Below are positions 3,424 through 18,365 of a stretch of DNA of 18,365 nucleotides, one piece after another. Source of the stretch: Bacteroidales bacterium (GTDB lineage Bacteria > Bacteroidota > Bacteroidia > Bacteroidales > UBA12077); NCBI GenBank assembly GCA_028282585.1, contig JANQHR010000170.1:1-18365 (forward strand), written 5' to 3'. Both the position numbers and the translations under genes were made by a program. The notes beneath the pieces were generated by a model. The model did not search any database, was not told the origin of the DNA, and worked only from the letters and a program-made list of their open reading frames with translations. The first letter of the stretch is position 1, and each line of letters opens with the position of its first letter.

Positions 3424-3453
3424 AAAAAAACCTCCACTCTTATCAAATGGAGG
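3424..3453 (-). terminator. Intrinsic terminator downstream of the cyanophycinase gene
   Basis: The minus strand reads CCTCCA-11 nt-TGGAGG followed by T7. Confidence 0.7.
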
Positions 3454-3561
3454 CTCAACTATGGTTAAACATATTTAACACCCCTTGCTAGAAACCGTTT
3501 AAATCCATAGTTACAATCGGGATCAATATTAAACCTAAAATTACGAGAGCAACGAAATCAT

Positions 3562-4434
3562 TTATTCCGTTATTTTGAACTGATCGCCAGGCAAAAAGAC
3601 ATTTAGCTCCATGTTCCCTGCTCCTAATAATTCATTAACAATTTTTGTTTCTTTTGATTTATGCCTAAGCACAATTACCTGGTAATTACCATAAACGGTT
3701 GCATTATTTCCCTCAACCAATATGGCTGTTGATTCATCAATACCTATGCCTGTTTCTTCAGGATTCTCAAGAACCGTAGAAATCAGTCTGTTCATTCGCA
3801 TTCGCCATACAAAATGCTGGTCGATAATTGCATTCTGTAATAGCCCCAATCCCTCTTCTATTTCGATGTTATTTGCTTCCAGGGTCCTGAAGTTACCCGT
3901 ATACTCCGGATATTTATGTTCGTTTCCCGTGATCATTTTTTTGCTCATTACAGCAGCGCCGGCACTTGTACCTGCTATTACCGAACCATTAAGATAAGCC
4001 TCATGAATTGCACCGTAAACGGCAGTATTATTTACTATTTCCATGAATCTGTTTTGGTCGCCACCTGAAATATAAATCAAAGATGCTTTCTTAAGTGAAT
4101 CAATCTTTGAATCGGTCATATCCTCATGAGTTTGCATATTAAAAGAAAAGATGTTTTCAATTCCATGATCCTTAAATTGTTTCATCCCATAAAAAGCTGC
4201 TGTGTCGGGAAATCCGCTGGACATAGGCAGAACAATGATATAACCAGAACTATCAACCTTTGAAATACGGATCATATCCTGTATCATGGTAGCCGGGCGC
4301 TTACCTCCTCCAACAATGAATAATTTTCCTTTGGGTATTGTTTCATTACCATCATTCTGTGCAGTATTTGTGCACGATATGGCAAAAAGCATAAGTATTA
4401 TAGCACCAATTACGTTTAGTTTATTTTTTTTCAT
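3562..4434 (-). CDS. cphB: Cyanophycinase (peptidase S51), predicted lipoprotein
   Basis: GKLFIVGGG, ISGGDQ, nucleophile motif AGTSAGA, IIDQHFVWRMRMNRL (catalytic His plus the R-x-R-x-x-R pattern of cyanophycinases) and GIGIDESTA (Glu). The start was moved from 4473 to the ATG at 4434 because this gives the lipoprotein signal MKKNKLNVIGAIILMLFAIS|C, and 4473 lies inside the promoter motif. Confidence 0.9.
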   Translation of the reverse strand: MKKNKLNVIGAIILMLFAISCTNTAQNDGNETIPKGKLFIVGGGKRPATMIQDMIRISKVDSSGYIIVLPMSSGFPDTAAFYGMKQFKDHGIENIFSFNMQTHEDMTDSKIDSLKKASLIYISGGDQNRFMEIVNNTAVYGAIHEAYLNGSVIAGTSAGAAVMSKKMITGNEHKYPEYTGNFRTLEANNIEIEEGLGLLQNAIIDQHFVWRMRMNRLISTVLENPEETGIGIDESTAILVEGNNATVYGNYQVIVLRHKSKETKIVNELLGAGNMELNVFLPGDQFKITE

Positions 4435-4455
4435 AATAATTCCTTTTAGTATACA

Positions 4456-4487
4456 ATTAATACACTTATCCATTTGATTTCCCTTAA
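4456..4487 (-). promoter_or_regulatory. Putative ECF sigma promoter, copy upstream of cphB
   Basis: TTAAGGG-N17-GTATTAAT on the minus strand, ending 21 nt before the ATG at 4434. Confidence 0.72.
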
Positions 4488-4513
4488 ATCAACTCTGATT
4501 TTTTAATCCGGTG

Positions 4514-5680
4514 TTAATTTTCGTATGTTCCTTTTTTTAACATTTTGTAATCTGATACCATTAGTTGTCCACGGGCAATTACTTCTGATATTTGATTGTT
4601 GTTATCCAGAATCAAGAGGTCGGCATCAAGATTTTCCGCTATTCTTCCTTTATTTTTTAATTTTAATATATCAGCAACATTAGAGGTTACAACTTTAATA
4701 GCATCTTCCAATGGAACTTTTTCAATTTTTACTGTATCTATAAGCTCATCAAGTATTGACTTTGGTTGTCCCATTTCCAACCGAACTAAATTTCCGTTTT
4801 CATCAAAATCAGGGAGCGATCCGTTTCCATCCGATGTCATCGTAATATGTTCCAGGGGAACACCTGCTTTTAGAAATTCAGCTATTGCTTTTGAAGGTTT
4901 TATTTCGTATTCGGGATAATATGGGTAAGAACTTGTTGTAATATCTATATAACCATTCTTTCCATAAGTTTTTGCATCTTCAAAAATATACTCATTACGA
5001 TTACAATGCGTTGGAAAGAATTGTGTAAACTTCAACTCACTCTTTTCAACCGCATCATAAATAGGTTGGAAAGGATTTTTTGCATCGCCCATGTGTATAT
5101 TAGCAATACCTGCCTTACCTCCCAGCATTCCTCCTACCCTTGCGTGTTCTACCAGCCTTATTAATTCATTTGTTGTAGGGCACGAACTACGATGGTCGGA
5201 CAATGCAATTTCTCCAATACCGATTATCTCGTCAATCATTGCAATATCTTTTCCTACATCGCCCAAAATTGTCGGTGTTGGTACCTGATAAGATCCAGTG
5301 TACATCCATGCCGAAACTCCCTCTTCGCGTAATGATTTAACTTTCATTAAAACACCGTTTAACGAACGTGTCATACCATCAGTTCCCAGGCAACCTATTA
5401 CGGTTGTTATTCCACCCGCAAGCATTTGCGACAATTGCATTTCGGGTGTTCGTGTTGAAGGTCCTCCTTCTCCACCTGCACCGGCAATATGCACATGTGC
5501 ATCTATTAAACCCGGAACAATCTTTTTTCCTTTACCATCAATTATTTCGATATTCAGGTTTTTTAAACCGGATATATCAATATTGTTTTTAACCGCAATA
5601 ATTTTTTCACCTGCTGTTAATATGTCCTTTTCTCCCAAAAATTCAGGAGCATAAACAGATATCTTTTTTATTAAATACAT
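4514..5680 (-). CDS. iadA: Isoaspartyl dipeptidase (beta-aspartyl peptidase, amidohydrolase family M38)
   Basis: PGLIDAHVHIAGAGGEGG..TRTPE, GCLGTDG, YTGSY, EIALSDHRSS, HMGD, PTHCNR and TSDGNGSLP. No signal peptide. Confidence 0.96.
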   Translation of the reverse strand: MYLIKKISVYAPEFLGEKDILTAGEKIIAVKNNIDISGLKNLNIEIIDGKGKKIVPGLIDAHVHIAGAGGEGGPSTRTPEMQLSQMLAGGITTVIGCLGTDGMTRSLNGVLMKVKSLREEGVSAWMYTGSYQVPTPTILGDVGKDIAMIDEIIGIGEIALSDHRSSCPTTNELIRLVEHARVGGMLGGKAGIANIHMGDAKNPFQPIYDAVEKSELKFTQFFPTHCNRNEYIFEDAKTYGKNGYIDITTSSYPYYPEYEIKPSKAIAEFLKAGVPLEHITMTSDGNGSLPDFDENGNLVRLEMGQPKSILDELIDTVKIEKVPLEDAIKVVTSNVADILKLKNKGRIAENLDADLLILDNNNQISEVIARGQLMVSDYKMLKKGTYEN

Positions 5681-5707
5681 ATCAAACCATTAATTTAGTT
5701 ACTATAT

Positions 5708-5739
5708 AATAATACGAATTTTAATGAAATTACCCTTTA
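5708..5739 (-). promoter_or_regulatory. Putative ECF sigma promoter, copy upstream of iadA
   Basis: TAAAGGG-N17-GTATTATT on the minus strand, ending 27 nt before the ATG at 5680. Confidence 0.7.
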
Positions 5740-5847
5740 GCTTATCTTCATGTTAAACCAAATAATTATCTTTTCGTCAATTGATTTAACAGTTTTTTTT
5801 GATTTAAGTAATAAATTTTTAATTTTCGCCTAACAAATTCTCGACAC

Positions 5848-6432
5848 TTGAGTAAGGACGATAAAATATTGGTCGAAAGATTAAAGAATGATGACCGCGC
5901 AGCTTTTGAAAAGTTATTTAAACTTTATTCAGAACGAATTTATTATTTTACCATCCGATACATTAAGAATAAAGAAGAGGCTGAAGAAATTACACAAGAG
6001 GTATTTGTAAGGCTTTGGAACAGAAGGTTCGATTTAAAAACCGAACTTTCATTTAGCAGCTACCTTTTTATGATTGCTAAAAATGCTGTTATTGATTTGC
6101 TTAGAAAAAGACAAAAGGAATCTTCTTTAAACGAGGAGATTACTCCAGACGTAAATGCAATTGCGGAAAAATCAAATAATTCGGTTGAGTATAAAGAATT
6201 AAACGAAATCGTAAAAAATTCCATTTTGCAACTACCCGAAAAAAGAAGACAGATTTTTTTACTTAGTCGTAATGAGGGATTAACATATAAAGAAATTGCC
6301 GAAAAACTAAATATTTCGATAAAAACGGTTGAGTCGCATATGCGTCTGGCTTTACAACAATTAAAGAAAACTATTGGAAGCTCATACGAATTAATTTTAA
6401 CAGGAATTTTCTTCCTGCCATTTTTTTGGTGA
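5848..6432 (+). CDS. RNA polymerase ECF sigma-70 factor (Bacteroidota FecR-associated type)
   Basis: Region 2 AFEKLFKLY..EAEEITQEVFVRLW, region 4 LPEKRRQIFLLSRNEGLTYKEIAEKLNISIKTVESHM, and a hydrophobic C-terminal tail. TTG start. Confidence 0.96.
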   Translation: MSKDDKILVERLKNDDRAAFEKLFKLYSERIYYFTIRYIKNKEEAEEITQEVFVRLWNRRFDLKTELSFSSYLFMIAKNAVIDLLRKRQKESSLNEEITPDVNAIAEKSNNSVEYKELNEIVKNSILQLPEKRRQIFLLSRNEGLTYKEIAEKLNISIKTVESHMRLALQQLKKTIGSSYELILTGIFFLPFFW

Positions 6433-6447
6433 AAATATTAATTTAAG

Positions 6448-6480
6448 TTAAGGGTGAATATTAACTTTGCCCGTAATATT
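6448..6480 (+). promoter_or_regulatory. Putative ECF sigma promoter, copy upstream of fecR-susC-susD
   Basis: TTAAGGG-N18-GTAATATT between the sigma gene and fecR. Confidence 0.7.
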
Positions 6481-6509
6481 GAATGAAAAGGGGGAAGTAT
6501 TAAGAATAA

Positions 6510-7439
6510 ATGAAAATAAAGAATCAACATACAGGTAAGCATTCGGAAAAAAACGGCATACCAAGCGAAAAAGAAATGCTTGAAACATGGGAGAATTACA
6601 CCAAACATAAGAATGATTTTCCTAAACCCGATTTGGACTCCTTATGGGATAAAACAACCGAAGAAATCGGGTGGAAAAAAAGAAGGATCGGTTTTTTTCG
6701 AAACTCTTTTTTTCGTTATGCTGCTGCTATTTTACTACCAGTTCTTGTTATTGGTAGCGGGGTATATTTTTCAGTAATAAAAATAAACAACAGCCTAAAT
6801 TATGCCAGTTACGAATCTCCTGCCGGAGAGCGATCGAAGATAGAGTTACCGGATGGATCAACTATTTGGTTGCAACCAAACAGCAAAATAAAATACCCAA
6901 AGGAGTTCAAAGCAGATTTAAGAGAAATAGAGTTCTCCGGCCAGGGATATTTCGATATTCAAGAAAACCCGGAAATACCTTTTGTTGTTCATATTGATAA
7001 TATGAATGTGACTGTTTTGGGCACCCAATTTTATATTAAAGCCAATCAGAGCAATGATTTAATTGAAACAGGATTGATATCGGGGAAAGTGAAAATTAGC
7101 ACATCAAGGATTGAAAGAATTTTATCACCCAATAATGTTTTGGTTTATTCTAAATCTTTGAAGGATATCAAAGAATCTAAAGATCTACTGAATAATAAAT
7201 TCCATTGGGATAATGGAAGTATTGTTTTTGAAAATTGCAGGTTTGTGGATGTATTAACGGAAATTTCCGATTGGTATGATATTGATCTGGAAATAAATCC
7301 TGAACTTGAATTAGATACCAGAATAACGCTTACGATAAGAGAGGAGTCAATAAATGAGATTTTGGAAATTCTTAAAATAATTGTACCTTTTGAATTTCAC
7401 AAAAAGCAGGATAAAATAGTTGTAAGTACTATTTCTTGA
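6510..7439 (+). CDS. FecR-family anti-sigma factor
   Basis: Single transmembrane segment YAAAILLPVLVIGSGVYF, plus GERSKIELPDGSTIWL, GQGYFDI, PFVV and VLGTQF, and a C-terminal domain (W..GSIVFEN..ISDWYDIDL). It lies between the ECF sigma and the TonB-dependent receptor. Confidence 0.95.
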   Translation: MKIKNQHTGKHSEKNGIPSEKEMLETWENYTKHKNDFPKPDLDSLWDKTTEEIGWKKRRIGFFRNSFFRYAAAILLPVLVIGSGVYFSVIKINNSLNYASYESPAGERSKIELPDGSTIWLQPNSKIKYPKEFKADLREIEFSGQGYFDIQENPEIPFVVHIDNMNVTVLGTQFYIKANQSNDLIETGLISGKVKISTSRIERILSPNNVLVYSKSLKDIKESKDLLNNKFHWDNGSIVFENCRFVDVLTEISDWYDIDLEINPELELDTRITLTIREESINEILEILKIIVPFEFHKKQDKIVVSTIS

Positions 7440-7476
7440 GCGATATAGCTCCATAAGTTTTATTAATTTCTAAATA

Positions 7477-10400
7477 ATGAACCTAAATAATCAATTTAAG
7501 TTTTGGCCGATTATTTTGATGTTCAGTATTCTATTCTTCCAATCCAAGGCCCAGGAAAACGTATCAGTAAAGCTTAGAAATGACAGCCTGAAGGAGTTGT
7601 TTACCTCTCTTGAAAATCAAACAGAGTATACGTTTGTTTATAGTAACGACGATATTGATGTATCGCAAAGAATTACTTACAGAAAAAAGAACATTGAATT
7701 AACTGAATTGCTCCATGAGGTTTTTACAAAAAAAGATATTAATTTTCGACTAATCGGAAAGCAAATTATATTAACAAAAAAGATTCCCGAGCCGATACCT
7801 AAGGAACTAAAAACAACAAGCGGAACAGTCCGAAATAAATCCGATGATCTCCCACTTCCCGGTGTTAATGTGATTGTTAAAAACACAACTATAGGTACAA
7901 GTACAGATATTAACGGAACTTTCAGTTTTAAAATACCGGGAGATAGTAACGTCCTGGTATTTTCGTTTTTAGGCTTCAAAACTTTCGAATTAAATACGCT
8001 GGATCAGAATAACTTTAATATCCTGCTTGAAGAGGAACCGCAACTTATTGATGAAGTTATTGTTGTTGGGTATGGAAAAGAAAGTAAAACTAATTTATCC
8101 AGCTCGGTAAGCGATATAAGAGCCGAAAAAATCGGTGAAATTTTTACCTCAAATCTGTCTGAATCGATTAACGGCAAGTTAACCGGAATTCTTGTCAACC
8201 AAAATTCAGGAACACCAGGCGCAGCAACAACTTTAAGAATCCGGGGAATAAGTTCCATAACCGCAGGTGCGGACCCTCTGTATATTATTGATGGAGTTCC
8301 CGTTATTGCAATGGATCTTAGTCAAATATATTTTAACGGACAAGGAGTAAATACCATTTCTGATTTAAACCTGCCCGATATTGAATCTATTTCTATACTA
8401 AAAGACGCTTCTGCTACAGCAATATATGGTGCCAGAGGATCAAACGGAGTTGTTTTAATTACCACTAAACGCGGAAATGGAGAGGATTCTTTTATAAGAT
8501 TTAATGCGAAATATGGTTTACAGCAAGTAGCAAAGACCTATGGTATGCTTAATGCAGAAGAGTTTATGCGCTATAAAAACAACGCAGCCGAAAATAGTGG
8601 CGGTATTGCCGTATATTCCGAAGAAGATATTCTTAACAATAAATATGATACGGACTGGCAGAATGAGTTATACCGGATTGCTCCCGTGGAATCATACGAT
8701 TTAGCTTTCTCCGGAGGTACACATACAACCAGGTATTATTTAACCGGTAGCTATTTTAATCAGTCAGGGATTGTTGAAGGAACTGATTATAAAAGAATAA
8801 GCAGTAGAATTAACCTTGATCATAAATTCTCAAATCGTTTAAATCTGGGTGCGAGTATTTCCATTAACCGGGCTGTAAATAACAGAAAAGAAGGCGATCA
8901 ATCGCTAAACGGGCCGGTTCCAAATGCAATTTCATTACCTCCAATTTACCCTGTTTATAATAATGATGGAAGCTTTAACGAAGACGGACCGCTCGCTAAT
9001 CCGGTTTCCATAGCCAAACAGCACACAAACATAGCCTACTCATGGCATACTTATGGAAATACATTCCTGGATTTTAAGTTATTTAAAAACTTAATCTATA
9101 AAGTAAAATTCGGAGTAGATTATGTTAATTTCAGGGAACATACCTACGACCCTGCAACCACAAGGCAAGGCGCCAAATATCAAGGCTTAGGAATTGAATC
9201 AACTTCCGAAGCCCTTAAAACGCTCTTTAGTAATATCATAAATTACTCAACTATTATTAATGAAAAGCATAGCATTGATGTTGTTGCCGGTTATGAAATA
9301 GATAATGAACAGGTTAGTTCCACTTTTATGCGAGGTGAAACTTTTGCCAGTGAAAAATTGGAATATTTAGCCAGCGCAGTGGAAAAAGTATCTGCTGAAG
9401 CTTATTTTGAAGAATCTATTATCAATTCATTTTTGGGTAGGATCAAATATAAACTCAACAACAAATACATAGCAACGTTCAATGCACGTTACGATGGTTC
9501 ATCACGCTTCAGCAAGCAAAATCGTTATGGTTTTTTCCCCTCCGGTGATATCGCATGGAAAATATCAAAAGAAAATTTTTTTACTATTAACTTCGTAGAT
9601 GATTTAAAGATACGATCGAGCTATGGTGTTACCGGAAATGACAAAATACCTGAATTTCTTTATATTGCGCAATTCGGCGCCTCGGAATATGCCGGATCTC
9701 CTACTATTTATCCGGTTAATATATCCAATCCTTCATTAAAATGGGAAACTACAAAGCAATTCAACATTGGTATTGATTTATCCATTTTAAAAAGCAGGAT
9801 AGCACTAACTGCAGATTATTATCACAAAAAAACAGAAGATTTATTGTTGGAAAATCCTATCCCACCATCATCGGGATATGAAGAAATAATAACCAATACC
9901 GGGAAACTTGAAAATAAAGGTTTAGAATTAAATTTGAAATCTTTAAATATGAACCGCAGTTTTCGTTGGGAAAGCGAATTAAATATTTCGTTTAACCGAA
10001 ATGAGGTTACAAAGCTATATAATAATCAACCCATAGATAATATTGGCAGAGGCTATCAACGAATCGAAGCGGGTGAACCTATCGGAATTTTTTATGGTTA
10101 TAATTCTCTGGGTGTTGATCCGTCAACCGGCGATTTGATCTTTGAAGATGTTAATCAAAATGGTTTAATTGATATAAATGACAGAACAAAAATTGGCAAT
10201 CCTCATGCAAAATTTCTGGGTGGTTTTTCAAACATTTGGACCTATAAAAATTTCGAATTAAACTTGTTTTTGCAGTTTTCGTATGGAAATGACGTATTTA
10301 ACGGCACGCGCCGGTATATTGAATCCATGAAGGATGCTAACAATCAAACTACGGCTATTTTGGACCGCTGGCAAGAACCTGGCGATATTACGGATATCCC

Positions 10401-10707
10401 AAGGGCTACCAATTCCGATCCAAATGAGAATAACAGGGTTTCATCAAGGTATATTGAGGATGGGTCTTTTATTAAGTTTAAAACACTAAGGTTGTCTTAC
10501 AATCTTGATGAAAACTTTACAAACAGATTAAATATCAATGCGATTAATGTATTTATTTTAGCTCAAAACTTGTTTACGCTTACGAATTACAGCGGTTTGG
10601 ATCCTGAAGTAAATTATGCGGGTGCAGATGTAATTAGATCAGGTGTGGAGTTTTTCACATACCCTTCCGCTAAAATATATTCTGCCGGTTTATCTATTAA
10701 ATTCTAA
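7477..10707 (+). CDS. susC: SusC/RagA-family TonB-dependent transporter with an N-terminal STN signalling domain (transducer)
   Basis: Signal peptide ..SKA|Q, STN-like SLKELFTSLENQTEYTFVY, carboxypeptidase-regulatory-like PLPGVNVIVK..GTSTDING, EVIVVGYG, plug motifs PLYIIDG and DIESISILKDASATAIYGARGSNGVVLITTKRG, LKWETT, YSGLDPE, and a terminal Phe. Confidence 0.96.
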   Translation: MNLNNQFKFWPIILMFSILFFQSKAQENVSVKLRNDSLKELFTSLENQTEYTFVYSNDDIDVSQRITYRKKNIELTELLHEVFTKKDINFRLIGKQIILTKKIPEPIPKELKTTSGTVRNKSDDLPLPGVNVIVKNTTIGTSTDINGTFSFKIPGDSNVLVFSFLGFKTFELNTLDQNNFNILLEEEPQLIDEVIVVGYGKESKTNLSSSVSDIRAEKIGEIFTSNLSESINGKLTGILVNQNSGTPGAATTLRIRGISSITAGADPLYIIDGVPVIAMDLSQIYFNGQGVNTISDLNLPDIESISILKDASATAIYGARGSNGVVLITTKRGNGEDSFIRFNAKYGLQQVAKTYGMLNAEEFMRYKNNAAENSGGIAVYSEEDILNNKYDTDWQNELYRIAPVESYDLAFSGGTHTTRYYLTGSYFNQSGIVEGTDYKRISSRINLDHKFSNRLNLGASISINRAVNNRKEGDQSLNGPVPNAISLPPIYPVYNNDGSFNEDGPLANPVSIAKQHTNIAYSWHTYGNTFLDFKLFKNLIYKVKFGVDYVNFREHTYDPATTRQGAKYQGLGIESTSEALKTLFSNIINYSTIINEKHSIDVVAGYEIDNEQVSSTFMRGETFASEKLEYLASAVEKVSAEAYFEESIINSFLGRIKYKLNNKYIATFNARYDGSSRFSKQNRYGFFPSGDIAWKISKENFFTINFVDDLKIRSSYGVTGNDKIPEFLYIAQFGASEYAGSPTIYPVNISNPSLKWETTKQFNIGIDLSILKSRIALTADYYHKKTEDLLLENPIPPSSGYEEIITNTGKLENKGLELNLKSLNMNRSFRWESELNISFNRNEVTKLYNNQPIDNIGRGYQRIEAGEPIGIFYGYNSLGVDPSTGDLIFEDVNQNGLIDINDRTKIGNPHAKFLGGFSNIWTYKNFELNLFLQFSYGNDVFNGTRRYIESMKDANNQTTAILDRWQEPGDITDIPRATNSDPNENNRVSSRYIEDGSFIKFKTLRLSYNLDENFTNRLNINAINVFILAQNLFTLTNYSGLDPEVNYAGADVIRSGVEFFTYPSAKIYSAGLSIKF

Positions 10708-10717
10708 AAACCAGAAA

Positions 10718-12001
10718 ATGAAAAACAAATTATTAATCATATTATTCATCATTTTTTCAGGCTGTGAGGGAATTCTTGAATTGCAACCGACCGATTCGAT
10801 AAGTTCTGATATTGCTATTTTAAACGAAACTGATTTACAAAATACAATCAGAGGATGCTATGATGCACTGCAATTTGATGGTTACTACGGGCGATTAATG
10901 ATTGTAATTGGAGATATTGGGTCTGACAATGCTTTCAATGGTGGTACAATTTTAGAATATGACCAATTTAACAAAAATAGTGTAGAGCAAGATAACAGGT
11001 TTTTGGAAGATATCTGGACAACTCCTTACATTGCCATAAACAGGTGTAATACAGCTATTTTTCACACAAACAACTTTGATCAAATAACGGAAACCAAAAG
11101 AAATGAATATCTTGCCGAACTTCGATTTTTAAGAGCATTAAATTACTTTAACTTAACGCGTTTATTTAAGGATCTTCCGTTAAAATTAGAACCTACATTG
11201 GATACGGAAGATCTTAATGTGCCATTATCCGGTCAAAATATAATTTATGAGCAAATATTGGAAGATTTGAACTTTGCCAATAATAAAATTGCGAATACAG
11301 ATCCGTATTATGCTACGGACCTTGCTGTAAAAACGTTACTAGCTAAAGTTTACCTGGAAATCAGGGATTATGAAAAAGCTAATGATTTTGCAGAGCTTGT
11401 TATTTCAAGTGATAAAGAACTTCTTGAATCTTTTGATGAGTTATTTACCATCGAACATAATTCCGAGTCAATTTTTGAATTAAGTTTTACAGAAATTTTA
11501 ACTGATAAGAACAGGCTGGCAGAATACTGCTATCCTACCAATTTAGGAGGTAGATACGAAATAGCTCCTGAGATTAATTTAATTAACTCTTTTGAAGATG
11601 AAGATACCAGAAAGGATTTATTTTTGGGAAATACCCCGTATTGTAACAAATATGAAAGTCTTGCTTCCGGTGCCGATAATGTTTATATTTTTCGTTTAGC
11701 CGAGCTATACCTGATTCGTGCTGAAGCAAATGCACGATTGCAAAGGAATTTAACTGAAATTAATAATGATATAAATAGAATTAGGCTCAGAGCAGGTTTA
11801 AATAATATATTCTCCAGTTCGTACAGCGAATTACTGGACTTTATTGAATCTGAACGCCAACACGAATTTGCCTTTGAAGGACACAGAAGATTCGATTTGG
11901 TGAGAACCGGTAAAGCTTCTTTTGTTTTAGGTATTTCCGAAGAAGATTATTATTTTCCTATTCCATTATCGGAAATTAATACAAACAATCAAATCGATTA
12001 G
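10718..12001 (+). CDS. susD: RagB/SusD-family lipoprotein
   Basis: The start was moved to the ATG at 10718, giving lipobox MKNKLLIILFIIFSG|C. Motifs AELRFLRALNYFNL, FRLAELYLIRAEA, ERQHEFAFEGHRRFDLVR and FPIPLSEI. Confidence 0.95.
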   Translation: MKNKLLIILFIIFSGCEGILELQPTDSISSDIAILNETDLQNTIRGCYDALQFDGYYGRLMIVIGDIGSDNAFNGGTILEYDQFNKNSVEQDNRFLEDIWTTPYIAINRCNTAIFHTNNFDQITETKRNEYLAELRFLRALNYFNLTRLFKDLPLKLEPTLDTEDLNVPLSGQNIIYEQILEDLNFANNKIANTDPYYATDLAVKTLLAKVYLEIRDYEKANDFAELVISSDKELLESFDELFTIEHNSESIFELSFTEILTDKNRLAEYCYPTNLGGRYEIAPEINLINSFEDEDTRKDLFLGNTPYCNKYESLASGADNVYIFRLAELYLIRAEANARLQRNLTEINNDINRIRLRAGLNNIFSSSYSELLDFIESERQHEFAFEGHRRFDLVRTGKASFVLGISEEDYYFPIPLSEINTNNQID

Positions 12002-12006
12002 CCGCT

Positions 12007-13152
12007 ATGAAATTACAATTTGCTATAAGTACCGTGTTGATAATTCTTTTATTATCTTGTTCCAATGATGATTCTGGTTCTCCTACTCCTAGCACTCAAG
12101 CCAAATTTGTAGTTGAAATGGAAAATAATGGTATTGCACCGGCAAAGGTTAACTTTATTAATCAATCGGTAAATGCTTTAGATTATTTATGGGAATTTGG
12201 AACCGGAGAAATACTATTAACTATAAGTAAAGATACTATTTCATATGTATATGAAGATGCAGGAAGTTATACTATAACACTAAGTGTTGAATCACCTAAT
12301 CCGGAATTATATTATAATGTTTTGGAGTATGAAAAAACAATTGTAATAAGTGAAATACCGGTAAAGAGACTTTACTTTACCGATAGAGCAGAAAATAAAG
12401 TAAAATATATTGCTCTTGATGATAATTCTTTACCGGTAATAGAAGAATTTGAAAGCGCTACGTTAAACAAGCCTTATGGAATGCACATGGACACTACAAA
12501 CGGAAAATTATATGTTACCGATTATTCGGAGCAGGTAATGAATAGTTATAATTGGGATGGAACGGCACAGGAAATCTTAATGAATTCAAGCACTGAAAAT
12601 TTCGGGTCCCCGATCGGTATCATCGTAATTGGAAGTAAAATATATTGGGGAGAACCGGATGGTATTCATTGTGCCAATCTTGACGGATCAAATCCCCAGA
12701 TTTATATTCCAATATTGGGAGAATATCCACAAGATCTTACTTATGACCACATAAATAATGCTTTTTATTTTACGAATGACCTTGATCCTGAAAATGGCGG
12801 AATTTGGAAAGTCGATTTTGATGGTGGTAACTTAACGGAAATAATTCCTGATGTTTGGGGTGGAGCCATTGAAATTGATCCTGAAAATAACAGGCTGTAT
12901 TATTATATAGGTTATGAAGGAATGTATATATCGGGGCTAGATGGTAGTAATCCGATTTTATTTGATGCTTCAAATGCCGGAAAATGGGCATGGGGAATGG
13001 CTATTGATAAAGAAGGTGGTAAAATTTATTATCCAAATCGTGTGGATCTGACCATAATGAGAGCAAACCTGGACGGAAGTAATGTGGAGATTTTTATACC
13101 CTCCTCAGCAGATATTAATCCTAACGCAATGACGATTGATACATACAGATGA
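12007..13152 (+). CDS. Lipoprotein with a PKD domain and a six-bladed YWTD/LDL-receptor-class-B-like beta-propeller
   Basis: Lipobox LLLS|CSNDD. PKD-like VNFINQS..YLWEFGTG..YEDAGSYTITLSV. Repeats LYFTD, LYVTD, IYWGE, FYFTN, LYYYI and IYYPN, several followed by an (A)NLDGSN-like motif. Confidence 0.85.
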   Translation: MKLQFAISTVLIILLLSCSNDDSGSPTPSTQAKFVVEMENNGIAPAKVNFINQSVNALDYLWEFGTGEILLTISKDTISYVYEDAGSYTITLSVESPNPELYYNVLEYEKTIVISEIPVKRLYFTDRAENKVKYIALDDNSLPVIEEFESATLNKPYGMHMDTTNGKLYVTDYSEQVMNSYNWDGTAQEILMNSSTENFGSPIGIIVIGSKIYWGEPDGIHCANLDGSNPQIYIPILGEYPQDLTYDHINNAFYFTNDLDPENGGIWKVDFDGGNLTEIIPDVWGGAIEIDPENNRLYYYIGYEGMYISGLDGSNPILFDASNAGKWAWGMAIDKEGGKIYYPNRVDLTIMRANLDGSNVEIFIPSSADINPNAMTIDTYR

Positions 13153-13184
13153 AAAATGCTGTTGGAAAAAACCAACAGCATTTT
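13152..13184. terminator. Bidirectional intrinsic terminator between the convergent operons
   Basis: AAAAATGCTGTTGG-AAAAA-CCAACAGCATTTTT is a perfect 14-bp inverted repeat with T-tracts on both strands. Confidence 0.92.
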
Positions 13185-13201
13185 TATTTAAACCTTCAAA
13201 A

Positions 13202-14590
13202 TTATTCCTGATCCCACCAAAACCTATCTTGTAAATTCGGTAATGGTTTAGGAATGTTTGGATTATAAATTCTTTCACTTTGTGGATATGGTAACCTTCT
13301 TGGTATTTCTCCTCCGGGATTTTGATTATGATCTCCACCTTCGTTTGGAGTTAAAACCGGATAGCCAGTTCTTCGATAGTCGGTCCATGACTCAATACTG
13401 GCATACATAGCAATATATTTTTGCGTAATAATAGTTTCAAGATCATCATTAAAACTACCGGTTAAAATCACATTATCCGCAATGTATTGATTTATAATAG
13501 TGTCATGTATTGCATTACCCGACATTCTTTTCATATTCGCATAAACAGCTTCATTTAAAACATTTTGTACCTCAGGATCAATTGTATTTAACCTTAATCG
13601 TGCTTCTGCTTCGATAAATTTTTGCTCGAAAAAAGTCATTAAATGAACCGGTGATTCCGGTGAAGAATAATACCTGTTTTCAATATTTGACACACCGAAT
13701 TTCTTAATATAAAAAAGCGTATCCCTGGGATCATCCAGAATAAACATTAAAGAAGTAAAAAAATCATTTGGCTCAATATAACCTAATCTGGAATATGAAT
13801 AAAACGGACTTTGCTCAGATGCCGAATAACCATATTGGTATATCATATCATCTTCGTTTGACAACATTCCGTTTGTAACTGCATTCAAAGCTGCCTGGCT
13901 TGGGTTATAAGACAAATCAACTTCTCGCTTGGTTAAATGCATATAATATCTTGCTTTTAAAGCATAGGCTGTTTGTTTCCACTTAGCCATGTTACCTCCA
14001 AAAATCAAATCATCGGCTCCCGGTTTAATTCCCTCATTTTCCGTGTCAAAAGCAACAATTGCTTCATCCAATAATTGTTGAATAGTTTCATATATCAATT
14101 CTTGGGAATCATAGCGAGGATTTAAATTTGTAGAACTCTGTAATGCTTCAGAATATGGAACGTCTCCCCAAAGTGAAGTAACATTTCCTAAGCATAAAGC
14201 CATTAAAGTTTTTCCAATTCCAATGTAGTGAGGAACATAACCATTCTCCTCCGCAAACATCAACATTTGTTTTATATTGATCATTGGTCCATCATAATAA
14301 TCCTGAAAATTCCAGTCAGCATACAAAGCTTCATCAACAATATAATTTTGTACTGGTAATGGATGATTCTCAATGCCTTCATAATATTGAACAAATATTC
14401 CGCTCATAACTTGAGTAGTACCTATCATTAATCGGGCTAATGATTCTTGATTATAAGGAAGCAATACATTTACCGGTACTTCGGTTACATCATTTTTATT
14501 AACATTGGCTTCTTCTAATTCACAGGAATTAAACGAAATTATTATAAATGATGCAATCATTAAGAATGTATAATTTATTATCTTTTTCAT
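13202..14590 (-). CDS. susD: SusD/RagB-family lipoprotein (SusD-like_2 type)
   Basis: Lipobox ISFNS|C, LWGDVPYSEAL, PRYDSQELIY, IITQKYIAMY, ESWTDYRRTGYP, IPRRLPYPQSE and RFWWD. Confidence 0.94.
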   Translation of the reverse strand: MKKIINYTFLMIASFIIISFNSCELEEANVNKNDVTEVPVNVLLPYNQESLARLMIGTTQVMSGIFVQYYEGIENHPLPVQNYIVDEALYADWNFQDYYDGPMINIKQMLMFAEENGYVPHYIGIGKTLMALCLGNVTSLWGDVPYSEALQSSTNLNPRYDSQELIYETIQQLLDEAIVAFDTENEGIKPGADDLIFGGNMAKWKQTAYALKARYYMHLTKREVDLSYNPSQAALNAVTNGMLSNEDDMIYQYGYSASEQSPFYSYSRLGYIEPNDFFTSLMFILDDPRDTLFYIKKFGVSNIENRYYSSPESPVHLMTFFEQKFIEAEARLRLNTIDPEVQNVLNEAVYANMKRMSGNAIHDTIINQYIADNVILTGSFNDDLETIITQKYIAMYASIESWTDYRRTGYPVLTPNEGGDHNQNPGGEIPRRLPYPQSERIYNPNIPKPLPNLQDRFWWDQE

Positions 14591-14607
14591 TTTTAATCTA
14601 TTTATTA

Positions 14608-17600
14608 TTAAAAGTTAACAAGAAGATTAATTTCATAACTTCGCGTATTTGGCATATTAAAATAATCGCGGCCCAAACTGTTTGAAGCGCCTGATAAATT
14701 CGTTTCAGGGTCGATTCCCGAATAATCGGTGAATAATAATAAGTTTCTTCCACTCAACCCAATACTTAAGTTGGATACAGGTATTTTTTCAAACCATTTT
14801 GAAGGTAAGTTATACGATAATGAAACTTCTCTTAAACGAATATACGACCCATCTTCAATATAGGCCTCTGATAGTCCTGCTAATCCACCTTGTCTGCTAT
14901 AATACGATCGGTCTCTTTTTACCGGCACTTCATTCGGCAGTCCGGTATTTACATTTACACCATCGAAAATAAAATCTTCATCGCGGTTTTCTGTATATTT
15001 ATGAGTTCCAAGGGATGTCATTACGCCACGTGTTCCGTTAAATACATCTCCACCCTCTTTTATATCAATTACAGCGGTTAAACTTAAGCCTTTATAAGAA
15101 AAAGTATTTCTAAGCCCCATTATAAAATCAGGATTTGGATCACCAACAATACCGGCCTCAGTATCAATTAAAGGATACCCTTCATCATCCACTAATACAT
15201 CGCCATTTTCGTTTCTCAAAAACCTTCCGCCATATATTACTCCAAAAGGTTCGCCTTCGATTGCAACGGAGCGGGTGCTGCTTAATCCTGTAGTTGGGAA
15301 CTCAAATAGCGGAATCTCTTCTGGTAAATCCTCTACAATGTTTTTGTTTTTTGAAAAATTAACCGTTAAATCCCAGATAAAATCTTTAGTTTCAACAGGA
15401 GTTGCATACATCTGTATTTCAAATCCTTTATTTGAAATAATACCAGAGTTTAATACCATTTGCGGATATCCGGATGAGCTTGGAATATTTGCATCAATAA
15501 TTTGATTATCACTTTCAGAATGATAATAAGCAAAATCAACTCCTAACCTGTTTTGAAAAAATTTAAGCTCAACTCCTGCTTCATAAGATATTGTTTCTTC
15601 GGGATTAATTCCATTATTTCCAATCAACCCCCTTGTTCTGTAAGCAACCTGTCCTTGAATACCACCGTCAATAGCCTGAAAGTAATTCTGTAAACTATAA
15701 GGATCGGCGTCATATCCTCCCCTTGCGACAGATGCTCTTAATTTACCAAAACTAAAAAAAGGTATTCTTTCTTTAAAACGAAAGGCTTCGGAAAATATAA
15801 AGCTCAAATTCACGGAAGGATAATCAAACCAGTTTTTACTTGCAGGTAAAGTCGAAGACCAGTCTATTCTGTAAGTGGTATTAAAGTATAAATAATCGTT
15901 ATAAGATAATCTAATATCGTAATATGCACCTACTCTTTTATACTGAGACTCTGAATCGTCGCCAGCCGACTCTTCGGTATTCGAAATATCGTAATAGTTT
16001 GGTAAAACAAATTTATCACCTCGCTGATATATATAATATGTGTTTCTTGTAACATAATTATTACCTAACAAGGCTGTTAAGTTTAGCTTATCTGTAATAT
16101 CTTTTTCTAAAGTTAAGATTAAGTCGGAGTTGGTTGATTGAAATTCATAAGTACTAATATTTATATACCCATCAGGAGTATCACTTGAATTATTATCCAA
16201 ATAATTGCTTCTTTTATCGGTGTAATAATCCAATCCCAAACGATACATAATGTTTAACCATGGAGTAAATTTGTAATCAATCTGCGTATTACCCATCAAT
16301 CTGTTAACTGTTGAAAAAGCCTTATTTTTATTTATGGACCAATACGGATTATCATAGTTTGGAAAGTAATTTCGTTGTGTACCATCTGGTAACATATATG
16401 CGCTTTCGTCGTTAACCGGATCGCCAGATCCGTTCGTAATGTCAAATGTTGGTGTAACGCGCATCAAACCAACCATAACAGCAGATAAATTGCTTCCCTT
16501 TTGCATAAAAGTACCATCTGAATTAGCATAAGTGGCTTTCCCTGCAATTTTAAGCTTTTCACTTATTTGCATATCACCATTAATTTTAAAGGTTGTACGT
16601 TTAAACTCGCTATTAGGAACAATACCCGATTGATTTACATGTCCTGTAGAAATATGAAAATTACCCTTTTCATCACCTCCGCTCATGCTTAGGTAAGTAT
16701 CACTTTTAATTGCAGTCTGGAAAAAATCATTCACGTTTTCATATGGAACAACGCGCTGAGAAGTTGCCGTTGGGTCACTCATACCGACTATTCTTCCATT
16801 TTGATCCAACAAATAATCGGTGGCACCATCATAACGTAAAGTGTCAATTAGTGGCCCCCAGCTTGTATTCACCGTACTTGAATATTCAACAGCTCCCGTT
16901 GATGTATTATAAAATCCCTGCGCATATCTATATTGCTTTTCCGGTAATTTATTAACTTCATCAAAGCCAATAGAAGTTCTAAAAGTTATTTGTTTTCTAT
17001 CAGTTCCTCTCCCCTCACCTGATTTTGTTGTGATAATAATGGCACCATTTGCTGCCATTATACCATATAATGCAGTTGCTGTTGCTCCTTTAAGTACAGT
17101 TACTGATTCGATATCATTAGGATTTATATCAATTGCCCGGTTCGAATGATCAACATAATACGACCCGTCATAACTGTTATCTACAGGTACACCATCAACC
17201 ACAAACAAAGGCGAATTCGATCTTCCAAGCGAAGTTCTTCCCCTGATTACAATATTAGAAGAAGCGCCCGGAGTACCTGATGAGCTGGTAATTTCAACAC
17301 CGGCAACCTTAGAACTTAATGAATTAACAATATTAGGCTGGCTGGTTGCAATTAATTCATCTCCTTTTACCTCCTGGGCCGAATAACCTAATGATTTTTT
17401 CTCTCTTTTAATACCAATCGCTGTTACAATAACTTCATCCAAAGATTTTGTATCCGGCCTTAAATCCATATTAATAATAGTTTGAGGGCCAACAGTCATC
17501 TCCTCTTTTATATAGCCAACGTAACTATATATAAGGATATCTTCGACAGAAGTAACAAAAACGGAATAATTACCATCTATATCCGTTGTTGTTCCTATGG

Positions 17601-17739
17601 TACTGCCTTGCACAACAATTGTAGCACCTGGCAAAGGTTCTCCCGTATCAGCATCTTTAACACTACCTGTAATTTCTATTTGTGCATGTGTTGATGCGGA
17701 GAAGATAATTAACATTAAGAGTAAATAGATTTTTCGCAT
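14608..17739 (-). CDS. susC: SusC/RagA-family TonB-dependent transporter without an STN domain
   Basis: Signal peptide ..THA|Q, GEPLPGATIVV, EVIVTAIGIKREKKSLGYSAQEV, PLFVVDGVP, INPNDIESVTVLKGATATALYG..AANGAIIITTK, YSGIDPE, and a terminal Phe. Confidence 0.96.
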   Translation of the reverse strand: MRKIYLLLMLIIFSASTHAQIEITGSVKDADTGEPLPGATIVVQGSTIGTTTDIDGNYSVFVTSVEDILIYSYVGYIKEEMTVGPQTIINMDLRPDTKSLDEVIVTAIGIKREKKSLGYSAQEVKGDELIATSQPNIVNSLSSKVAGVEITSSSGTPGASSNIVIRGRTSLGRSNSPLFVVDGVPVDNSYDGSYYVDHSNRAIDINPNDIESVTVLKGATATALYGIMAANGAIIITTKSGEGRGTDRKQITFRTSIGFDEVNKLPEKQYRYAQGFYNTSTGAVEYSSTVNTSWGPLIDTLRYDGATDYLLDQNGRIVGMSDPTATSQRVVPYENVNDFFQTAIKSDTYLSMSGGDEKGNFHISTGHVNQSGIVPNSEFKRTTFKINGDMQISEKLKIAGKATYANSDGTFMQKGSNLSAVMVGLMRVTPTFDITNGSGDPVNDESAYMLPDGTQRNYFPNYDNPYWSINKNKAFSTVNRLMGNTQIDYKFTPWLNIMYRLGLDYYTDKRSNYLDNNSSDTPDGYINISTYEFQSTNSDLILTLEKDITDKLNLTALLGNNYVTRNTYYIYQRGDKFVLPNYYDISNTEESAGDDSESQYKRVGAYYDIRLSYNDYLYFNTTYRIDWSSTLPASKNWFDYPSVNLSFIFSEAFRFKERIPFFSFGKLRASVARGGYDADPYSLQNYFQAIDGGIQGQVAYRTRGLIGNNGINPEETISYEAGVELKFFQNRLGVDFAYYHSESDNQIIDANIPSSSGYPQMVLNSGIISNKGFEIQMYATPVETKDFIWDLTVNFSKNKNIVEDLPEEIPLFEFPTTGLSSTRSVAIEGEPFGVIYGGRFLRNENGDVLVDDEGYPLIDTEAGIVGDPNPDFIMGLRNTFSYKGLSLTAVIDIKEGGDVFNGTRGVMTSLGTHKYTENRDEDFIFDGVNVNTGLPNEVPVKRDRSYYSRQGGLAGLSEAYIEDGSYIRLREVSLSYNLPSKWFEKIPVSNLSIGLSGRNLLLFTDYSGIDPETNLSGASNSLGRDYFNMPNTRSYEINLLVNF

Positions 17740-17775
17740 TTTTATAAGATTTCATTAATATTTTTTATACATACT

Positions 17776-17807
17776 ATTAATACAGAAGAAATACAGTAAG
17801 CCCTTAA
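17776..17807 (-). promoter_or_regulatory. Putative ECF sigma promoter, copy upstream of the second susC
   Basis: TTAAGGG-N17-GTATTAAT on the minus strand, ending 36 nt before the ATG at 17739. Confidence 0.72.
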
Positions 17808-17950
17808 TGCAAAAACCTATTTTTTATTAACGTTAATTATAGCAAGGAATTAAACAAACCTGTCAAGTATAATTGCTTAAATAAAGCAGTGTTGATTTTA
17901 AGTTATCAGTATTTAAAAGTCAAGATTTATTAACTTTTTATTAAAAAGAA

Positions 17951-17982
17951 TTAAGGGTAAGATCATTTTATGAGGTAATAAT
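17951..17982 (+). promoter_or_regulatory. Putative ECF sigma promoter, copy upstream of the truncated ORF at 18021
   Basis: TTAAGGG-N17-GTAATAAT, ending 38 nt before the ATG at 18021. Confidence 0.72.
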
Positions 17983-18020
17983 AAGTGTAATAAAATTTAC
18001 TAACTAAAATTTAAACGCTT

Positions 18021-18365
18021 ATGAAATCAAAGATTTTTACCCTGATTTTTATTTGCATGGGACTATTTATCCAAAGTCTAATAGCACAACCTCTTAATTG
18101 GAGGGAATCTTCACCCGAAGGCTGGGATCCAATAATCATGGAAGCAGATTTTGATAATTTTACTGAAGGAACAGCATCATTGAAAATAACTTTTACTGAA
18201 ACAGGAACACCTTATTTTGTAACTGATACTTTTGATGTAACTGCTTCTACAGTTTGTAACTTATCAATGGATGTTTTAGATAATGATCCGGCGGCTGAAG
18301 TTAACCTTCGTATTAGATTTATATTAGATGACGGAACCAAGGTAGACTCAACGTCGAAAGAATAT
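18021..18365 (+). CDS. Secreted protein, 5' part only (runs off the window, absent from the ORF track)
   Basis: Open for 115 codons: MKSKIFTLIFICMGLFIQSLIA|QPLNWRESSPEGWDPIIMEADFDNFTEGTASLKITFTETGTPYFVTDTFDV... It has a Sec signal followed by Gln, then an acidic beta-rich region. Confidence 0.85.
   Translation, partial: MKSKIFTLIFICMGLFIQSLIAQPLNWRESSPEGWDPIIMEADFDNFTEGTASLKITFTETGTPYFVTDTFDVTASTVCNLSMDVLDNDPAAEVNLRIRFILDDGTKVDSTSKEY

Follow-up and report, generated by a model that had tools for sequence, protein, structure and literature searches.

We report a gene cluster on contig JANQHR010000170.1 of the Bacteroidales bacterium assembly GCA_028282585.1 (genome G000; Bacteroidales-type, 4.89 Mb, 98.35% complete), in which a cyanophycinase-type gene (cphB) and an isoaspartyl dipeptidase gene (iadA) stand beside two SusC/SusD transporter pairs. 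The stretch analyzed (the window) was the whole contig (C34, 18,365 bp), and the cluster continues on contig C65. The locus probably feeds on cyanophycin released by other microbes, a reading to which we give a probability of about 0.68. A first-pass annotation of the window had proposed this use of the Sus design, and the comparative evidence (gene families, linkage, export signals, and absence of the cyanophycin synthetase gene cphA) favors it.

Enzymes, transporters, and predicted topology

Gene families were assigned by Pfam and NCBIfam profile scans of open reading frames (ORFs). Together with the ORF listing, these scans recovered all genes named in the first-pass annotation (Table 1), including its divergent arrangement of cphB-iadA and an operon of extracytoplasmic function (ECF) sigma factor, fecR, susC1, susD1, and a lipoprotein gene (here P). 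The second susC/susD pair is also real; it is encoded on the other strand and converges on the first operon.

CphB passed the curated cyanophycinase equivalog cut-off (TIGR02069), and its Winogradskyella ortholog scored 159. Compared with solved cyanophycinases, it matched 7uqv (E 1.7e-32, 116.1 bits) and 3en0 (E 6.4e-19, 71.6 bits), with the GGDQ, GTSAGA, DQHFxxRxRxxRL, and GIDE motifs aligned column for column in both; these active-site motifs were invariant in 6/6 orthologs. Roles for the cyanophycinase Ser nucleophile, a His, an acidic residue, and the GGDQ and Arg-x-Arg-xx-Arg segments were reportedly established by Law and colleagues in 2009.

The gene cut at the right contig end (18021 ORF) resumes on C65, whose start encodes the last 457 aa of the protein (69% identity with G008, a complete genome of the same genus). 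The C34 end and the C65 start lie ~0.9 kb apart inside one type IX secretion system (T9SS) gene of G054, the closest relative found (CphB 87% identical), where the locus sits on one 121-kb contig. The block is collinear in G008 and is followed there by the T9SS protein (744 aa, with DUF5018, choice-of-anchor J, and Por_Secre_tail), a carrier, and an S51 protein. With the C65 part, the locus gains a secreted enzyme (S51long) and an inner-membrane carrier and spans ~21 kb in two modules.

The PF18962/TIGR04183 sorting domain was found at residues 591-664 of S51long as well as in the 744-aa homolog of the 18021 ORF. In S51long, the GGDQ and GTSAG motifs and residues D194, H196, R200, R202, R205, and D227 were invariant in 14/14 orthologs. 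The N-domain of its AlphaFold model (mean predicted local distance difference test [pLDDT] score, 85.7) matched Synechocystis cyanophycinase 7uqw (E 5e-15) and is followed by a second alpha/beta domain and a T9SS C-terminal domain resembling 8gl6_D. The second domain (approximately residues 300-580) has conserved motifs and matched no Pfam family even at E 10. Residues 1-280 and 281-590 aligned by BLASTP collinearly and weakly (E 1.8 only), and on the model the second domain could be a degenerate S51 duplicate mimicking the cyanophycinase dimer.

In an S51 tree of 102 rows, drawn from every second locus, four lineages separated, each set apart by a branch: exported CphB (40 rows; support, 99), cphA-linked CphB (28 rows; 98), S51long N-domains (15 rows; 94), and other T9SS or short S51 forms (14 rows; 100). 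Both this tree and the SusC tree below were made with FastTree and carry Shimodaira-Hasegawa-like (SH-like) support only; the five G000 paralog rows in the S51 tree include possible non-S51 ORFs, which have very long branches. Elsewhere in the genome, a 288-aa S51 paralog (C77:36653-37519; L045:8653-9519) scored 115.1 bits on TIGR02069, just under the cut-off; it is ~30% identical to CphB and kept in many relatives.

Both SusC-SusD pairs are directly adjacent (gaps of 10 and 17 bp, taking 10718 as the susD1 start), with TIGR04057 signatures present. Among 59 SusC sequences, susC1 fell in a clade of 37 rows (SH-like support, 99) in which every member is a cphB-linked SusC; the clade spans Bacteroidales, Saprospiraceae, Cytophagales-type, and Flavobacteriaceae records and leaves out the six other SusC of G000. 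We regard the susC1 type as a dedicated clade with moderate confidence, because the outgroup consisted of G000 paralogs alone. susC2 grouped (support, 98) with SusC located ≤10 kb from cphB in loci L086, L055, and L064. In L086, a susC2/susD2-type pair abuts a T9SS protein-fecR-iadA-ECF-cphB-S51long-YfcC carrier series that has no susC1-type pair. Judged from phylogeny and gene order, both pairs belong to the system.

The ECF sigma and FecR genes lie directly upstream of susC1. SusC proteins with fecR directly upstream were 1,075 to 1,105 aa long (n = 25) and those without it 968 to 1,061 aa (n = 22); an N-terminal extension of ~90 aa was present in 25/25 of the former. That SusC length tracks fecR fits a signaling extension, and the extension of susC1 is probably an STN signaling domain.

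Signal peptides were called by pattern and by eye; the lipobox pattern missed at least five obvious lipoboxes. The CphB N terminus, MKKNKLNVIGAIILMLFAISC, holds a lipobox whose Ser-Cys is invariant in 6/6 orthologs. The pattern was found in 55 of 80 CphB orthologs; of the other 25, 2 are N-terminally truncated and 23 have a signal-like hydrophobic start (by eye), so that 78/78 complete orthologs begin with a signal-like segment. An acidic stretch after the lipobox Cys is a surface-export signal in Bacteroidota. Of the 55 CphB orthologs with the pattern, 54 have 0 or 1 acidic residue in the five post-Cys positions. P fits the pattern in 57/61 cases and has ≥2 acidic residues there in 55 of those 57 (SNDDS in the window). 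Since P has the acidic signal and CphB does not, P and the SusD proteins are predicted on the surface and CphB in the periplasm. The extracytoplasmic CphB of the first-pass annotation thus stands as regards export, with the periplasm rather than the surface as its predicted site. A periplasmic CphB would imply that oligomers cross SusC.

The AlphaFold model of P (pLDDT, 86.9) shows the PKD domain followed by a six-bladed YWTD-type beta-propeller, which Foldseek matched to LRP6 and LDL-receptor YWTD propellers (E 5.5e-16). On this model, P is a candidate surface binder of the substrate.

Residues 2-387 of IadA match TIGR01975 model positions 2-389 of 389. With the match covering the protein from residue 2 onward, there is no leader peptide, and IadA is, as the first-pass annotation had it, cytoplasmic.

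Table 1. Positions of locus features in the window and, where so marked, on contig C65
Feature	Position	Strand	Evidence or remark
Terminator-like hairpin	3428..3456	-	12-pair stem then T-rich tail; consensus match only; downstream of cphB
cphB, exported S51 serine peptidase, cyanophycinase-type	3562..4434	-	TIGR02069, 161.9 bits vs cut-off 126.6
iadA, isoaspartyl (beta-aspartyl) dipeptidase	4514..5680	-	TIGR01975, 492.6 bits vs cut-off 331.25
Divergent intergenic region iadA / ECF sigma	5681..5847	.	Contains AATTTTAATGAAAT at 5717-5730
ECF sigma, Bacteroidetes subfamily	5848..6432	+	TIGR02985, 163.5 bits vs 126.4; also PF04542, PF08281
fecR, FecR-type anti-sigma	6510..7439	+	PF04773 (E 1.6e-15), PF16344 (E 2.1e-13)
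susC1, SusC/RagA TonB-dependent transporter	7477..10707	+	TIGR04056, 851.8 bits; N-terminal extension
susD1, SusD/RagB-family surface lipoprotein (predicted)	10718..12001	+	PF07980 (E 2.2e-23), PF14322 (E 1.5e-14); lipobox FSGC
Lipoprotein P, PKD domain and beta-propeller	12007..13152	+	PF00801
susD2, SusD-like_2 lipoprotein	13202..14590	-	PF12771, 213.8 bits; ELEE after lipobox Cys
susC2, second SusC/RagA transporter	14608..17739	-	TIGR04056, 684.4 bits, match from residue 21; no signaling extension
Divergent intergenic region susC2 / T9SS protein gene	17740..18020	.	
3'-open ORF, 5' part of T9SS-secreted surface protein gene	18021..18365	+	Homology to G008 protein; cut at contig end
DcuC/YfcC-type carrier	C65:1800-3197	-	PF03606, 367.7 bits; NF008611, 386 bits, below cut-off 500
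S51long, 664-aa T9SS-secreted cyanophycinase-like enzyme	C65:3204-5198	-	TIGR02069, 91.2 bits, below 126.6; PF18962

Conservation of the linkage and distribution of cphA

One genome per species was scanned with an alignment of six CphB orthologs, which gave 214 relatives confirmed by tblastn. The loci surveyed were the best 80 of these 214 Bacteroidota relatives (49-87% identity; many cut by contig ends). Flanks of ≤10 kb were annotated by blastp against the locus proteins (E < 1e-6, coverage ≥0.5), by which divergent SusD and other proteins can be missed.

The linkage is conserved across Bacteroidota, in the same genus and, rearranged, across orders. Same-genus genomes G008, G022, G001, and G054 carry the block, with G022 and G001 keeping the core. 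Two genomes of another family (G007 and G032) have a compact one-strand version (fecR-susC-susD-PKD lipoprotein-T9SS adhesin-S51long-iadA-ECF-cphB-DcuC-type carrier). Records from Flavobacteriaceae, Cytophagales-type genomes, Saprospiraceae, and Salinivirgaceae hold rearranged forms in which SusC/SusD, CphB, and a beta-aspartyl dipeptidase are all retained. In Flavobacteriaceae the genes usually run ECF-fecR-susC-susD-P-P-cphB, with genes for a periplasmic M20 peptidase and then a T9SS S51 enzyme after them, and the Flavobacterium order is T9SS-S51-susC-susD-IaaA-type-cphB-carrier-S51. Cultured genera with the operon are Gelidibacter, Winogradskyella, Aequorivita, Flagellimonas, Flavobacterium, and Fulvivirga.

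Neighbors among the 80 loci included SusC plus SusD (46 loci), a second S51 protein (43), P (34, often duplicated), a DcuC/YfcC-type carrier (33), an ECF sigma factor (30), and fecR (27). A same-strand SusC or SusD gene ended <4 kb before cphB in 32 of the 62 loci with ≥8 kb upstream. Where ≥8 kb was available on both sides, SusC plus SusD accompanied cphB in 32/46 loci, versus 1/20 in a control set of cphA-linked intracellular cphB loci from the same phylum (19.6 kb each); P or the carrier occurred in 0/20 controls. An IaaA-type (Asparaginase_2) gene lay ≤8.5 kb from cphA-cphB in 17/20 of these controls (L178-L197), which is more than expected from a figure in PMC10206079, whose Table 2 puts IadA and/or IaaA in 22.1% of CphA1-encoding Bacteroidota genomes.

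A dipeptidase slot was recognized in 49/80 loci, and its occupant varies by lineage: IadA (18/80), an IaaA-type enzyme (9/80), or an M20 peptidase (22/80). In Flavobacterium loci, an Asparaginase_2/beta-aspartyl-peptidase (IaaA-type) enzyme takes the iadA position by nonorthologous replacement. The M20 (glutamate-carboxypeptidase-like) peptidase, which has a signal peptide and follows cphB (L103:10834-12156 and 21 other loci), occupies Flavobacteriaceae loci lacking iadA. This peptidase could carry out the splitting of beta-Asp-Arg, a step described in a passage of Sharon et al. 2023 (PMC10206079) as undiscovered in many Bacteroidota.

The first-pass annotation had recognized no cyanophycin synthetase in the window, and this extends to the genome: cphA was absent from G000, where the best TIGR02068 match reached 127.4 bits against a cut-off of 850. 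TIGR02068 found CphA above the cut-off in 50/401 Bacteroidota genomes, so the model works in the phylum. No cphA was found in five relatives carrying the locus, two of them complete genomes.

Likewise, no glycoside hydrolase, lyase, or esterase family appeared in the Pfam/NCBIfam tables for the window, as the first-pass annotation had said of glycoside hydrolases, or in those for C65:1-13953 and the G008 flanks. Carbohydrate-active enzymes (CAZymes) just past the right edge could have explained the SusCD pairs; C65, G008, and G054 show the T9SS protein, the carrier, and the S51 enzyme there instead. The locus is therefore not a polysaccharide utilization locus (PUL) in the strict sense, for which CAZymes must be encoded.

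Two observations concern individual records. G003, of the same genus, has a cphB remnant (L042:14381-14860; 159-aa ORF, match interrupted by TGA) with no iadA or SusCD nearby, and looks to have lost the locus. Loci L049, L050, and L058, from records titled Thiohalospira sp., Spirochaetaceae bacterium, and Paludibacter propionicigenes, are nearly collinear with the window; these bin labels are probably wrong.

Proposed route and competing explanations

In the route we propose, T9SS-secreted S51long and the T9SS surface protein would act on polymer freed from lysed producers, and the surface lipoproteins SusD1, SusD2, and P would capture the fragments. Oligomers would cross the outer membrane via SusC1 and SusC2, and the periplasmic lipoprotein CphB would trim them to beta-Asp-Arg dipeptides. 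These would pass the inner membrane via the DcuC/YfcC-type carrier and be split by cytoplasmic IadA into Asp and Arg. Substrate bound at SusC1 would be signaled inward by way of the N-terminal extension, and FecR together with the ECF sigma factor would then turn the locus on. Gene identities, predicted export signals, linkage, and the lack of cphA are observations; the substrate, how large the imported species are, what each binder does, and the regulation are inferred. We see an even chance that several Bacteroidota orders, including cultured marine Flavobacteriaceae, share a dedicated SusCD machine of this kind for a nonribosomal polyamide, combining two-tier depolymerization (outside, the T9SS S51 enzyme with its second alpha/beta domain; in the periplasm, CphB), a new YWTD-propeller class of binder for poly(Asp-Arg), import of oligomers instead of dipeptides, and a DcuC/YfcC-type beta-Asp-Arg permease.

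Several points weigh against feeding on cyanophycin by this route. No enzyme assay, growth, or expression records were found for any locus member (a search for sequencing runs turned up DNA data and no RNA), and family membership by sequence does not prove CphB activity. The exported CphB clade is just 27-32% identical to cphA-linked CphB and scores ~160 bits on TIGR02069 versus 217-229 bits for the latter, while S51long is under the cut-off (91.2 versus 126.6 bits). The order of steps is uncertain, because a secreted enzyme that yields dipeptides alone would seem to make SusCD and a periplasmic CphB needless. A SusCD pair went undetected in 14 of the 46 fully flanked loci. The STN (PF07660) match at susC1 residues 51-102 is weak (17.8 bits, below the Pfam cut-off of 28.4), so that of the ECF-fecR-STN-susC series in the first-pass annotation, the ECF sigma factor, fecR, and susC1 are borne out and the STN domain is a weak match under threshold. 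IadA, described in a passage of PMC10206079 as promiscuous for beta-aspartyl dipeptides, is the sole iadA-like ORF of ≥300 aa in G000 (genome-wide ORF blastp) and may for both reasons also serve housekeeping. Lastly, Foldseek gives 7uqv under the title "pseudo-CphB," and the window CphB is closer to 7uqv than to Synechocystis CphB. Pseudo-CphB is said, in a 2022 abstract by Sharon and colleagues, to be without cyanophycinase activity.

Closeness to pseudo-CphB was considered as a sign of inactivity and ruled out. The CphB adjoining a bona fide cphA in L154 also prefers 7uqv over 3en0 (174.3 versus 130.2 bits), and the preference is reversed in the cphA-adjacent CphB of L148; the preference thus reflects lineage, not pseudo status.

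An unlikely alternative is a co-functional locus for another substrate, in which Asp-rich or isoaspartyl peptides would be imported in a RagAB-like manner and cut by S51 enzymes of different specificity. The S51 family also covers peptidase E and cyanophycinase-like exopeptidases (matches to 6nqc, 7c9b, and 1fy2), the pseudo-CphB is structurally near-identical, the short T9SS S51 forms, like S51long, fall under the TIGR02069 cut-off, and the promiscuity of IadA (PMC10206079, in part) would suit such peptides. Another SusCD cluster of G000 adjoins histidine-catabolism-type genes and a DcuC-type carrier. Against a different substrate stand the CphB score above the curated equivalog cut-off, the conservation, in the two S51 lineages alike, of the Arg-x-Arg-xx-Arg, GGDQ, Ser, His, and acidic positions shared with solved cyanophycinases, and the recurrence of beta-aspartyl-specific dipeptidase families (IadA or IaaA type) beside CphB in 27/80 loci. 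To our knowledge, cyanophycin is also the only abundant natural source of beta-aspartyl dipeptides, which likewise speaks for cyanophycin.

Somewhat less likely again is the same substrate taken up differently, with depolymerization all extracellular, CphB surface-exposed, and SusCD importing beta-Asp-Arg or Arg. TonB-dependent uptake of small, scarce nutrients is common, and cyanophycinases are described in a passage of PMC10206079 as dipeptide-releasing exo-enzymes. The leaders of CphB orthologs, however, alternate between a nonacidic lipobox and signal-peptidase-I type (by eye), whereas P is acidic in 55/57, and a periplasmic CphB would be without substrate if dipeptides alone entered. Chance adjacency of glycan PULs to a cphB-iadA pair, with CAZymes off the contig, could appeal to the window stopping inside a gene, with its right flank outside the contig. 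It is very improbable: C65 and two contiguous relatives show that flank without a CAZyme family, and the linkage survives several rearrangements across orders and is absent in 19/20 control loci. Because G000 has only eight SusC-like genes, with 2.5% of genome bases ≤10 kb from one, the adjacency is more than chance. The least credible explanation is turnover of the cell's own cyanophycin store. Producers, too, cluster cphB with an isoaspartyl peptidase (the IaaA-type gene of the 17/20 cphA loci), but no CphA was found in the 98.35%-complete genome or in two complete relatives, CphB and S51long have export signals, and exported and cphA-linked CphB fall into separate clades. Scavenging of cyanophycin from other microbes remains the preferred reading.

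The histidine-catabolism-type cluster (C135:50710-64709; L146) has two more SusC/SusD pairs beside genes for an amidohydrolase, formiminotransferase-cyclodeaminase, and a DcuC-type carrier sharing 67% identity with the carrier of the compact cyanophycin loci. It may be another SusCD system for a nitrogen-rich nonglycan substrate, and its setting suggests that the organism may use SusCD for nitrogen-rich substrates generally. Eight SusC-like genes in 4.9 Mb seem few for Bacteroidota; two of the eight belong to the locus.

Flanks, published systems, and significance

The hairpin downstream of cphB is the likely left boundary of the locus. The left 3.5 kb of the window contain two glyoxalase/VOC-family genes and three ORFs with no Pfam match (405-896, 978-1310, and 1303-1656, all on the minus strand). 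G+C is 0.26-0.27 at positions 1-2000 and 0.32-0.38 elsewhere in the window. This left region has no counterpart beside cphB in G054, with which synteny stops at ~3507, and G008 has a DcuC-type carrier in its place; it may be a recent insertion or replacement. On the other side, the genes past the S51 gene (MBL-fold hydrolase, SBF transporter, FtsX permease, and two-component system) look unrelated.

A shared promoter motif had been offered in the first-pass annotation as an argument against chance. All locus intergenic regions were compared for 12-mers with ≤1 mismatch, and the best pair, a 13/14 match between the divergent intergenic regions, was AATTTTAATGAAAT (5717-5730, plus strand) and AATATTAATGAAAT (17749-17762, minus strand). 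Of four orthologous iadA-ECF regions, three lack this motif and the one from the closest relative has it in altered form, so the motif was rejected as evidence and the argument is not supported. A sigma-70 promoter scan showed no enrichment (68 sites versus 70.1 expected) and is uninformative for Bacteroidota.

The locus resembles canonical PULs in its adjacent SusC/SusD genes, accessory surface lipoproteins, and pairing of a surface depolymerase with a periplasmic exo-enzyme, and it resembles those under ECF-sigma/anti-sigma control in its trans-envelope signaling via a SusC N-terminal extension. Unlike them, it has no CAZyme, and degradation would be carried out by S51 serine peptidases and a metallo-dipeptidase. 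Its secreted enzyme carries a T9SS C-terminal domain in place of a lipoprotein anchor, and the putative binder is a YWTD beta-propeller. RagAB of Porphyromonas gingivalis is, like the system proposed here, a SusCD-type pair for peptides instead of glycans. It reportedly imports ribosomal oligopeptides made by gingipains and, in the 2020 account of Madej and colleagues, is said to be linked neither with S51 enzymes or IadA nor with ECF/FecR regulation.

The abstract of a 2017 paper by Ben Hania and colleagues (Environ Microbiol, volume 19, page 1134) is said to mention a transport complex homologous to PULs. The "cyanophycin utilization locus" of that work came from Bacteroidetes strain L21-Spi-D4 (Ben Hania et al. 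2017, as cited in a passage of PMC10206079). The idea has thus been in print since 2017; the window, which has cyanophycinase(s), iadA, and a transporter clustered without cphA, is a more elaborate member. A complete 4.81-Mb genome in the family of the record titled Salinivirga sp. (Salinivirgaceae) has cphB-susC-susD-P, then iadA and a T9SS S51 gene, whose products are 58%, 47%, 40%, 34%, 68%, and 32% identical, respectively, to those of the window locus. For the Salinivirga species, a passage of Sorokin et al. 2018 (PMC6243061) gives two S51 proteins, one with a Por secretion domain. This core is common to both; the window locus further has an ECF sigma factor, FecR, and the SusC signaling extension, together with a T9SS surface protein, a DcuC/YfcC-type carrier, and one more SusCD pair, which belongs to a different clade.

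In other phyla, a TonB-dependent transporter by the cyanophycinase gene of the alphaproteobacterium Citromicrobium has been interpreted as importing cyanophycin (Tang et al. 2012; PMC3400609), and proteobacterial dipeptide use via CphZ/AotO and an ABC (ATP-binding cassette) transporter has been described (PMC9974463). CphE of Pseudomonas anguilliseptica is, like S51long as proposed here, a secreted S51 enzyme that attacks environmental cyanophycin. Unlike the locus here, neither the Pseudomonas nor the Citromicrobium system has SusD, a T9SS, or a second, periplasmic cyanophycinase. In the literature library searched, we found no paper characterizing a SusC/SusD system for cyanophycin, in agreement with the first-pass annotation.

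Because of that earlier publication, the value of the present analysis lies in breadth, anatomy, and testability, not in first discovery. It brings new candidate roles in cyanophycin metabolism for a YWTD-propeller lipoprotein, a DcuC/YfcC-type carrier, and a T9SS-secreted two-domain S51 enzyme, and the cultured genera that carry the operon make the prediction directly testable. Cyanophycin is a major fixed-nitrogen store in cyanobacteria and many other bacteria, and knowledge of its recycling after lysis comes mostly from a small number of proteobacterial and Gram-positive isolates. If our reading is true, Bacteroidota turn their signature SusCD import to a branched polyamide, well outside glycans. 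If the machine is shared across orders as outlined above, no earlier SusCD system would have had a nonglycan, nonribosomal polymer as its defined substrate, and the machine would offer a quantitatively relevant route for the recycling of cyanobacterial nitrogen.

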